A DNA stretch of 64,000 nt from a virus, in IMG/VR virus record IMGVR_UViG_3300009431_000003. One strand, given 5' to 3'. Both the position numbers and the translations under genes were made by a program. Shown here in pieces: positions 32,885 through 35,352 of the stretch (within the stretch, counting starts at the first letter, position 1; every line of letters starts with the position of its first letter). The notes beneath the pieces are model-generated. The model was not told the DNA's origin and made no database searches. It was given only the letters and a program-made list of their open reading frames with translations.

Positions 32885-33221
32885 GGGCATGGTTTTGGAT
32901 TCGACAGAGGAGCTTGAGAGCGACTCCAGCAAGCCAGGGAGCATCCGGCCCTGTAAAAAGATGCACATTTTTAATTGCCGAACCGCAATTAGCTAACGCT
33001 GCGTAGAGCAGCGCGTTGTACCGGCTGACTCCGATACGTCGGCTACAGCGTTACATATCGGATAGTCTTGATGGCTGATCGTATCAAGGGAATTCCAGAT
33101 CACCAACTCTCTGAGTATCCTGTCCATGGGAGACAATGAAGAGTATAAAACATGGACTAAGCTTGTAGACGGACCGTAAACACTTTTCTGGACTGGGGTT
33201 CGACTCCCCACATGTCCACCA
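32885..33221 (+). ncRNA. ssrA: tmRNA
   Basis: 5' GGGCATG..GGATTCGAC; 3' GGGGTTCGACTCCCC-ACATGTCC-ACCA; G3-U70 pair; tag AEPQLANAA* at 32977-33006. Confidence 0.92.
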
Positions 33222-33226
33222 ATTAT

Positions 33227-33394
33227 GGCGAGGTAGTTCAAGTAGGAACGTCTAATGTATAGAAGAACCTGGAATATTTTATACATTGTCCTCCTCAAGA
33301 ATTAGGAGAGATCTTCTGCAGAGAGAACTCGATAATAAAAACAGAATACTGGGCTTGCTGCTCAGAGATGCTGGTTCAAATCCGGTCCTCGCTG
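33227..33394 (+). ncRNA. tRNA-like RNA with ~110-nt insertion in place of the anticodon arm
   Basis: Acceptor GGCGAGG/CCTCGCT, D-arm GTTC..GAAC, T-arm GCTGG-TTCAAAT-CCGGT; no CCA. Confidence 0.6.
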
Positions 33395-33542: not shown

Positions 33543-34316
33543 ATGAAAGAGAATCAGTTACATGTCCTCCTTGCTGTTGAAGGAGACTTGCAGGGACAAG
33601 CAAAAAGAGTAATAAAGGAAGCGTATGATACCTTTAAGTCCAAGCTGCATCTGTTCGATGGGCTGGATAAGGTTCTTCATATGTTTGATGAAAAGCGGCA
33701 ACAAGAAGAATCTGCCGGCAGGCAACACAGTGACGTTGCCACAACAGTCGAGGATAAGTTAAGATATATCAAAGGAGCAGTCGGCAACTATTGGGACGCT
33801 GTCCTCCAAAAGGAAAACGCAAATCAGGATGCCCAGGCTGATTTGGTAATCGACGGAAAGACGATCGCCCCTGGGTTACCCGCCACATTCCTTCTTGGAA
33901 TGGAAAGCAAGGTAAAAGCCTTGAGAGAAGTTTTCGAGGCTATTCCGACCAGGGATCCGAATATCTCTTGGATCGCCGCAGACGACATCGGTCCTGGTGT
34001 GTTCAAGTCTGTCGTGCCGATTGATAGAACCAAGACTGAGACTATCGTTGAGCCGGTTGTGTTGTATCACGCAACCAAGGACCACCCCGCACAGGTCAAA
34101 GAGGGATCAAAGGTAGTAACCATCGGCAAAACTTCCGAAACAAAGTATACCTCTCGCTGGACTCCTCTTCAGAAGAGCAATGCTTTGGCTCGGGTAGATA
34201 AATTAATCCGTTCTTTGAAGAAGGCGCGGCAAAAAGCCAACCAAACAGAGATTAAAGATGCTCATATAGCCAATGACATCTTTAAATACCTTCTGGAAGG
34301 CAAATTGCCGGGATAA
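33543..34316 (+). CDS. Unknown-function helical protein between two tRNA mimics
   Basis: 257 aa, AAGGAG RBS; N-terminal QLHVLLAVE resembles a widespread phage family of unknown function. Confidence 0.8.
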   Translation: MKENQLHVLLAVEGDLQGQAKRVIKEAYDTFKSKLHLFDGLDKVLHMFDEKRQQEESAGRQHSDVATTVEDKLRYIKGAVGNYWDAVLQKENANQDAQADLVIDGKTIAPGLPATFLLGMESKVKALREVFEAIPTRDPNISWIAADDIGPGVFKSVVPIDRTKTETIVEPVVLYHATKDHPAQVKEGSKVVTIGKTSETKYTSRWTPLQKSNALARVDKLIRSLKKARQKANQTEIKDAHIANDIFKYLLEGKLPG

Positions 34317-34491
34317 GAATACAAGGTAGGTGTAACCTTGTTGTTGGTGTCATAGAATACTGGGTACAGTCCGAGGCGGGAGCCCATGAAAGACGATGCC
34401 CTATATTCGGAATTGATGTCTGCTGTTAAAGTTTTGCACCTACAGCTTCATCGCAACTCAATGTCAAGCGATGCACAATGCTCAAAATTAC

Positions 34492-34562
34492 ATCCTGGTC
34501 GGAGGTTCAAATCCTCCCTCGTTCTCCATTATGAACGAGTAGCTCAGCGGTAGAGCAAGGGT
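34492..34562 (+). ncRNA. Circularly permuted tRNA-like module (3' half precedes 5' half)
   Basis: ATCCT-GGTC-GGAGG TTCAAAT CCTCC-CTCGTTC-T-CCA, TTAT spacer, then GAACGAG-TA-GCTC AGCGGTA GAGC-A-AGGGT; acceptor and anticodon stems pair across the halves. Confidence 0.75.
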
Positions 34563-34611
34563 TTTCAAACTGAAGCAATGTGGTTTATGCAGAGACAGAA
34601 GAGGCAACCCC

Positions 34612-34689
34612 GATTTTATGGCTCAATTGGATAGAGCTGCGGACTATAAAATCCGTGAGTTACGGGTTCAACTCCCGTTAAGATCACCA
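34612..34689 (+). tRNA. tRNA with 8-nt anticodon loop (CTATAAAA); identity uncertain
   Basis: Acceptor GATTTTA/TAAGATC, D-arm GCTC..GAGC, anticodon stem GCGGA/TCCGT, T-arm ACGGG-TTCAACT-CCCGT, encoded CCA. Confidence 0.75.
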
Positions 34690-34726
34690 GGGGGCCAGGT
34701 GAGGATACATCCTGGCCCCCACTTTT
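34690..34726 (+). terminator. Intrinsic terminator
   Basis: GGGGGCCAGG...CCTGGCCCCC followed by ACTTTT. Confidence 0.65.
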
Positions 34727-34745
34727 AGGCTTACAAGGAGTACTT

Positions 34746-35272: not shown

Positions 35273-35276
35273 TTAT

Positions 35277-35352
35277 GGGGGATTAGCTCAGTTGGAAGAG
35301 CGTGGCGCTTGCATCGCCGAGGTCATCGGTTCGATCCCGATATCTTCCACCA
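35277..35352 (+). tRNA. tRNA-Ala (TGC)
   Basis: Canonical 76-nt cloverleaf, loop CT-TGC-AT, G3-U70, encoded CCA. Confidence 0.93.

Follow-up and report, generated by a model that had tools for sequence, protein, structure and literature searches.

In the 64,000-nucleotide stretch of DNA analysed here (the window), which is part of a large uncultured phage, a complete tRNA body with its halves in swapped order was read from the sequence at 34492-34562 (+). Judged from the sequence, this element is a real RNA gene with the shape of a tRNA. It is a YrlA-like tRNA mimic of a subclass linked to the protein family DUF7873, and searches of Rfam and of the literature returned no family and no paper describing such a DUF7873-linked RNA. 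It is the DUF7873 gene, not Ro60, to which the family is linked in position and strand. The element appears to be only the head of a longer RNA, and the conserved link to the DUF7873 gene upstream is its main context.

The initial annotation of this region described a tRNA 3' half placed upstream of its own 5' half, and each of the parts it listed was located (Table 1). The 5' part of the element runs through the 3' strand of an anticodon-like stem, the variable region, the T arm, the acceptor 3' strand, U73 and CCA. After UUAU, the 3' part continues with the acceptor 5' strand, the D arm and the 5' strand of the anticodon-like stem. All 7/7 positions of the acceptor stem are Watson-Crick pairs, and ATCCT and AGGGT form five pairs, one of them G-U. 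The nucleotides of the tRNA elbow are all present (U8, A14, G15:C48, G18G19, U54U55C56 and A58), and the anticodon loop is absent. The outward stem that had been described as well, CACAATGCT at 34474-34482 with AGCAATGTG at 34574-34582, forms 8/9 pairs around a central A-A mismatch. Between this outer helix and the tRNA body lies an internal loop that is asymmetric, with 9 nt on one side and 11 nt on the other. On folding, the stem ran further than described, as an irregular basal rod under the tRNA body (34462-34484 with 34571-34597) whose outer limits are at about 34462 and 34597 (-39.8 kcal/mol, z -2.5). The minimum free energy (MFE) structure of the element was identical to the centroid structure. 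The window element has both a long basal rod and an internal loop with a YUGA-type motif, and its AAACTGA internal-loop motif is common to three relatives (L195, L193 and L131). The bulge of the rod is 5 nt in the window (34583-34587), as against a single nucleotide in about half of the family members.

Standard tRNA finders had been expected to miss the gene, and they did. ARAGORN and the Rfam tRNA model made no call on the element; their output was the tmRNA and two tRNAs. A 55-aa ORF runs across the RNA (34386-34553). It was called in one of the other assemblies of this sequence (L117, 10844-11011) and left uncalled in another (L118), and it is most likely spurious.

Table 1. Positions of the permuted element, its parts and the neighbouring genes in the window.
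Feature	Position	Strand	Basis
tmRNA, one-piece	32885-33221		ARAGORN, Rfam
tRNA-like gene, its UUAU leader directly behind the CCA of the tmRNA	33227
DUF7873 gene, 257 aa; conserved upstream neighbour, candidate protein partner	33543-34316	+	Pfam PF25283, E 8.6e-65
Upstream RNA domain: long hairpin, then ACAGCTTCA motif at 34442-34450	34325-34450	+	fold
Closing stem of upstream hairpin: GGTAGGTG with CACCTAC	34325-34332 with 34437-34443	+	fold
Rod 5' strand (TGTC, GCG, CACA, TGCTCA segments)	34462-34484	+	MFE and centroid fold
Internal loop 5' side, AAAATTAC region with YUAY-like TTAC	34485-34491	+	sequence; aligns to CUAc of Rfam YrlA consensus
Anticodon-stem-like 3' strand ATCCT	34492-34496	+	sequence
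Variable region GGTC, 4 nt, C48 able to pair with G15	34497-34500	+	sequence
T arm GGAGG-TTCAAAT-CCTCC	34501-34517	+	sequence; pairs covary across DUF7873-linked members
Acceptor 3' strand CTCGTTC	34518-34524	+	sequence
Discriminator U73 (T)	34525	+	sequence
Encoded CCA	34526-34528	+	sequence
Linker TTAT (UUAU), predicted RNase P leader	34529-34532	+	sequence; cleavage inferred
Acceptor 5' strand GAACGAG, followed by TA (U8 A9)	34533-34539	+	sequence
D arm GCTC-AGCGGTA-GAGC	34542-34556	+	sequence; pairs covary across DUF7873-linked members
A26	34557	+	sequence
Anticodon-stem-like 5' strand AGGGT	34558-34562	+	sequence
Internal loop 3' side TTTCAAACTGA and rod 3' strand (AGCA, TGTG, TGC, GACA)	34563-34597	+	fold
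tRNA downstream of the element	34612-34689	+	ARAGORN, Rfam
GC-rich hairpin with U run, behind tRNA 34612-34689	~34691-34730	+
tRNA-Ala	35277-35352		ARAGORN, Rfam

Homologues of DUF7873 numbered 637 in one search and 2,455 clusters at 50% identity in another. They are located on phage-like contigs, frequently within tRNA clusters. An exact-sequence scan of IMG/VR with the element and a single-protein scan with DUF7873 gave no match, and the relatives came from an alignment query. The first three DUF7873 relatives inspected had the permuted layout 3' of the gene, with compensatory changes in all helices. Occurrence was determined in a sample of 84 loci (80 from IMG/VR, three metagenome contigs and the window). 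With a strict pattern of a perfect 5-bp T stem and a 7-bp acceptor, the element was found in 70 of the 84 DUF7873 loci, as 61 distinct sequences. A covariance model, R1, made from 33 relatives with the window left out, found it in at least 79. The strict pattern was also matched in 11 of 13 MAG contigs, all 13 of them short and phage-like. Among 71 further IMG/VR loci collected with two distant DUF7873 queries, 61 carried the element by R1, many of them with two tandem heads. Overall, about 140 of 155 DUF7873 loci on phage contigs have the RNA downstream on the same strand.

Every element match was on the strand of the DUF7873 gene. Of 71 non-redundant DUF7873 loci, 55 had the layout at a distance of 80-700 nt behind the gene, compared to 0/71 on the opposite strand, 0/71 inside the gene and 1/71 upstream in the controls, so that the element is not a chance match. 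In the window, the T arm begins 184 nt after the DUF7873 stop at 34316, which is the family median, within the 120-260 nt downstream of DUF7873 on the same strand that characterises the family. All known family members are from uncultured phages, and among 401 sampled genomes of Actinomycetota the only one with a match was the centre genome itself. When cultured-phage records were searched with the window for near and distant DNA similarity, only the tRNA-Ala matched, and Pfam or PHROG matches are rare among the ORFs of the window (endolysin, helicase). The identity of the tRNA downstream differs among loci and therefore gives no clue.

A second permuted tRNA-like head is present right behind the first in many relatives, and the window has one head. 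Loci with two heads include L139 (3554-3645), L174 (3545-3636), L180 (3621-3723), L287, L239, L250, L243, L261 and others, and the second heads often carry a leucine-type D arm (TGGCGGAATTGGTAGACGC). In L120 (5101-5164) and L122 (5099-5162), a tRNA-like sequence that has GAU in its anticodon loop lies 3' of the permuted element. It was matched by the Rfam tRNA model at positions 5-66 only and left uncalled by ARAGORN; in L120 a tmRNA comes next.

Pairing was supported across the family. In an alignment of 44 members, selected for pairing of the T and acceptor stems with the D arm, the anticodon-like stem and the flanks unselected, 91.9% of the cells in the four core helices were paired. Compensatory changes on both sides were seen in 20 of the 21 core pairs. 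The covariation score was 0.827, against 0.215 after shuffling and at most 0.19 with the register slid. The D-arm pairs covaried and were 96.6% paired, and the anticodon-like stem was 68% paired in fixed register. Cognate flanks of the 61 members paired at -20.4 kcal/mol and non-cognate flanks at -11.6; for the flank duplex of the window the values were -19.3 kcal/mol and, with non-cognate partners, -11.5. R1 matched the window at 34492-34562 over model positions 1-79 of 79 (76.3 bits, E 4e-17). Held-out DUF7873-linked members scored 49-85 bits and Ro60-linked units 32-53 bits. Since R1 was built without the window and scores it at 76.3 bits, membership in the family is secure, and the window element almost certainly belongs to the DUF7873-linked phage RNAs.

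The same data bear on the readings that the initial annotation had named as fatal to its proposal, namely two unrelated degenerate tRNA fragments or an assembly artefact. Junctions of tandem tRNA genes do match the same models weakly, as at 33185-33255 (33.3 bits). However, the acceptor strands of the element are perfectly complementary and covary in more than 100 loci. Over the 384 nt around the element, two other JGI metagenome assemblies have the same sequence, except that one of them differs at two places in the neighbouring tRNA; because the element is the same in three assemblies, it is not an assembly artefact. Both readings are refuted, with a probability close to nil.

The initial annotation had also pointed to a likeness to the tRNA-like module of YrlA, and this kinship was borne out. 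At permissive thresholds, the Rfam YrlA model (RF02553) was the sole significant non-tRNA match, running end-to-end (36.5 bits, E 8.8e-6). It agrees with the description by Wang et al. (2018), according to which most YrlAs resemble circularly permuted tRNAs in which the acceptor loop is closed; the structure of the module was solved in that study (10.1101/312249). The score lies under the Rfam YrlA gathering cut-off of 69 bits, a cut-off which does not discriminate here because Ro60-linked phage YrlAs reach only 37-42 bits and none passes it. As the gathering threshold had failed as a positive control, bit scores were compared instead, and other DUF7873-linked RNAs scored 27-47 bits. Like YrlA, the element has a rod formed by its ends, on which T arm, acceptor-like stem and D arm follow one another in swapped order, with the tRNA tertiary nucleotides and no anticodon loop, and phage versions of YrlA are likewise placed in tRNA/tmRNA regions. 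The fold of the window element is very probably YrlA-like, and DUF7873-linked RNAs and classical YrlAs are evidently kin.

YrlA, a Ro60/Rsr-bound Y RNA of bacteria and mycobacteriophages, was defined by Chen et al. (2014) on three features (PMC4201824). These are a T/acceptor/D module resembling a tRNA, a GNCGAAN0-1G motif close to the 5' end, proposed as the Ro60 contact, and a location less than 4 kb from Ro60 on the same strand. The element differs from this definition in having DUF7873 as its neighbour, without a nearby Ro60 gene and without the motif. It further has a full 7-bp acceptor with N73-CCA and a U-ending leader where YrlA has a short closing loop, and a repeat-bearing domain upstream. 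GNCGAAN0-1G was absent at 34317-34490, the nearest sequence being AGCGATG at 34467-34473 with two mismatches, and the GNCGAA motif was not enriched in the DUF7873-linked family (2/61 versus 1.9 in shuffles). No TROVE/Ro60 gene was detected in the 64-kb window by Pfam on ORFs of at least 250 aa or by tblastn with nine phage Ro60s; about 118 kb of the genome lies outside the window.

An ordinary Ro60-bound YrlA, whose Ro60/Rsr would come from the host or from a gene beyond the window, with DUF7873 accessory or unrelated, is nevertheless an alternative to be weighed. The Rfam YrlA score of the element equals that of the Ro60-linked phage YrlAs. In L147 the gene order is Ro60, DUF7873, RNA, as a single operon in which Ro60 and DUF7873 overlap by 11 nt. 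G001, a 358-kb uncultured phage (locus L203, 2587-3183), has four tandem classical YrlA units behind Ro60 as well as a DUF7873 module. Each of the L203 units begins with GCAGCGUAG...UACUUCG; two have closed loops, and two carry a 7-bp acceptor with NCCA and a UAU leader like the window element, so that the CCA-bearing form is not exclusive to DUF7873. The flanks of the window element, however, are without the GCAGCGUAG...UACUUCG motifs of the Ro60-linked units in L203 and L098, and the DUF7873 module of G001 sits 200 kb from its Ro60/YrlA array. Ro60 was found in 2/10 phage records with the DUF7873 module and was missing from 8/10, and three of the four near-complete (>=90%) module-bearing records are without it. 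Together with the missing GNCGAAN0-1G and the window free of TROVE/Ro60, these points make a Ro60-bound YrlA unlikely.

The acceptor end was compared over the 61 distinct members. CCA directly follows the acceptor 3' strand and N73 in 49 of them, with about one expected by chance, and is missing in 12. N73 is U in 25, G in 18, A in 13 and C in 5. U occupies position -1, before the acceptor 5' strand, in 34/61, and the last three linker bases are UAU in 25/61. The window has the arrangement typical of the family, a 7-bp acceptor, N73-CCA and a linker ending in U (CTCGTTC-T-CCA-TTAT-GAACGAG). UUAU stands directly before three tRNA-type 5' ends in the window (33222-33227, 34529-34533 and 35273-35277). 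The leaders of the other RNAs in the island are UUUU for the tmRNA and CCCC for the tRNA at 34612. Because UUAU also precedes tRNA-Ala (35273-35276) and the gene at 33227, it looks like the ordinary RNase P leader of the phage. In some of the long-linker members the leader pairs with NCCA, and RNase P would therefore be hindered there.

The YrlA of M. smegmatis, the one YrlA with a 7-bp acceptor stem, is cut in vitro by RNase P at the tRNA 5' site, and in vivo it is found as two halves, of which the 5' half ends in CCA (PMC4201824). The processing proposed for the window element is of the same kind, an RNase P cut and a CCA-ended half. In M. smegmatis, in contrast, CA is added after cleavage, where the window element encodes its CCA, and Rsr binds the RNA, whose gene lies upstream of rsr. 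Opening of the element by RNase P is supported by the conservation of N73-CCA and U(-1), the recurrence of UUAU and the mycobacterial precedent, and we consider it somewhat favoured. From the sequence and this analogy, opening followed by trimming back to CCA would be the most likely fate of the RNA.

The product had been envisaged in the initial annotation as chargeable, which the family data do not support. N73 and the acceptor pairs vary freely, without a conserved identity set. G3:U70 is found in 1/61 members, and the window has A3-U70. Aminoacylation of the RNA is therefore unlikely.

Two-piece tmRNAs, which occur in alpha-proteobacteria, cyanobacteria and others, have a CCA-ended acceptor piece upstream of the 5' piece. 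The element shares this permuted gene order, of acceptor piece with CCA, linker and 5' piece, and a comparison with two-piece tmRNA had been suggested from the outset. It did not hold. No permuted-tmRNA model gave a match at E up to 10, and RF00023 matched a T-arm fragment only (10.1 bits). The element is without pseudoknots and without a tag frame, for which 34563-34611 leaves no room, its D arm is canonical, and it lacks the G3:U70 pair. The phage moreover already has a one-piece tmRNA. A two-piece tmRNA is thus extremely improbable and for practical purposes refuted.

The comparison with algal and archaeal permuted tRNA genes fared no better. As a true permuted tRNA gene, the RNA would be cut and ligated across the rod, and UUUCAAA after AGGGT would serve as an anticodon loop reading UGA. 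All tRNA features bar the loop are there, UUUCAAA has U33 and A37 in register, and the possibility has been raised for some YrlAs by Wang et al. (10.1101/312249). The family, however, has no conserved in-register 7-nt loop, its UYAG motif lies at varying offsets, and the anticodon-like stem is poorly conserved. The element is also without the bulge-helix-bulge that restores a 7-nt loop in Cyanidioschyzon-type and archaeal permuted tRNA genes; at the junction the asymmetric 9/11-nt internal loop is followed by a 9-bp helix. We know of no bacterial splicing endonuclease. Taken together, this makes a spliced tRNA very unlikely.

Neither a promoter-like nor a terminator-like site was found on the strand of the element between the DUF7873 stop and the RNA. 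DUF7873, the element RNA and the tRNA at 34612-34689 may thus form one transcription unit, which probably ends at the hairpin with the U run behind that tRNA. A sigma-70 promoter at a conserved TTGCCC-ACAGCTT motif was considered and rejected by eye, as the -10 boxes were inconsistent among loci. The upstream domain would belong to the same transcript as the element, and its closing stem and CAGYUUYAG motif are also present in relatives. In 50 related loci the spacer between the DUF7873 stop and the rod contains 4-7 tandem six-base units inside the closing hairpin, of the types GCTTCA, GTTGTT and ATCTTT. Lag-6 autocorrelation of the spacer in the DUF7873-linked family was 0.313 versus 0.266 (z 8.6), and six-base periodicity is weak in the window's own spacer at 34317-34450 (CCTTGT TGTTGG TGTCAT). 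From its sequence, such a spacer could offer a track to a protein binding at six-base intervals.

The element might instead be a cis-acting end or processing signal of the DUF7873 mRNA, at which RNase P frees the tRNA and leaves a tRNA-like 3' end, with no function in trans. The absence of promoter-like and terminator-like sites between gene and RNA is consistent with this, as is the constant distance to the stop codon (median 184 nt), and RNase P is known to form the tRNA-like 3' ends of mammalian lncRNAs (cited in 10.1101/312249). A simple signal, however, would have no need of a conserved 25-30 bp rod, nor of the conserved internal-loop motifs, the repeat track and the second head in tandem, and the ordinary tRNA already located downstream could serve the purpose. 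A purely cis-acting role is quite unlikely.

The explanation that we find best, and consider probable, is a non-coding RNA of about 270 nt which starts just behind the DUF7873 gene and has the element as its tRNA-shaped head. DUF7873, this RNA and the tRNA behind it would be transcribed together. RNase P of the host would cut between U34532 and G34533, and UUAU would be trimmed to the encoded CCA by 3' exonucleases. The product would be a tRNA look-alike in two pieces, nicked and with its CCA end free, which the acceptor stem, the anticodon-like stem and the rod would keep joined. DUF7873 would bind the rod or the upstream repeat track, and the particle would engage or divert those host proteins by which the elbow and the acceptor end of tRNAs are recognised, without taking part in decoding. 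The full form of this proposal, a Ro60-independent RNP of DUF7873 and RNA with a head opened by RNase P, through which the phage diverts or engages host tRNA-end enzymes, is rather doubtful.

The role of the tRNA-like module of bacterial Y RNAs has been a standing question since 2014. The present family, seen on about 140 contigs of phages and on 11 from MAGs, indicates that a Y-RNA-like design recurs in phages, where it goes with a single uncharacterised protein and in most cases without Ro60. These phage RNAs retain a full acceptor end with an encoded CCA. The linkage offers DUF7873 as a concrete candidate partner, along with a concrete prediction on processing. If the proposal is true, Y-RNA-like particles have a second class, independent of Ro60 and carried in phage tRNA islands, and DUF7873 would be the kind of factor that Wang et al. 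(2018) had in mind when they suggested the tRNA-like module as a docking site for an unknown factor (10.1101/312249), one that reads the module.

Binding of the element RNA by DUF7873 is proposed tentatively, from synteny. The literature search found no paper naming DUF7873. Its AF2 model (pLDDT 86.9) shows helices packed in a bundle, along with long beta hairpins. Searches of PHROG, PDB sequences, Foldseek-PDB and BFVD gave no match at E 0.001 or better, fold searches with the model returned no match to a known RNA-binding fold, and the best VIA-align hits (Z 8.4) were generic helical bundles. A Ro60-like ring was considered and is not what the AF2 model predicts. Several Cas7/RAMP proteins were among the top Foldseek rows, with a probability below 0.15 and a TM of about 0.1, values that amount to no evidence. 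Cas7/RAMP backbone proteins bind RNA every six bases, and these rows are noted solely in view of the six-base repeats next door. A Ro-independent tRNA-like RNA with SPFH/Band-7 proteins was reportedly proposed by Burroughs and Aravind in 2016. Their proposal likewise has a tRNA-like non-coding RNA as scaffold with a protein other than Ro60; DUF7873 differs in having no Band-7 match in Pfam or fold searches.

In the window and in L117, the anticodon loop of the tRNA behind the element (34612-34689) is 8 nt long (CTATAAAA). The counterpart of this tRNA in L118 (8358-8434) has a 7-nt loop, lacking one A, and in its anticodon stem an A replaces a G. As the loop is normal in L118, the third assembly, the odd 8-nt loop is a polymorphism or a homopolymer error.
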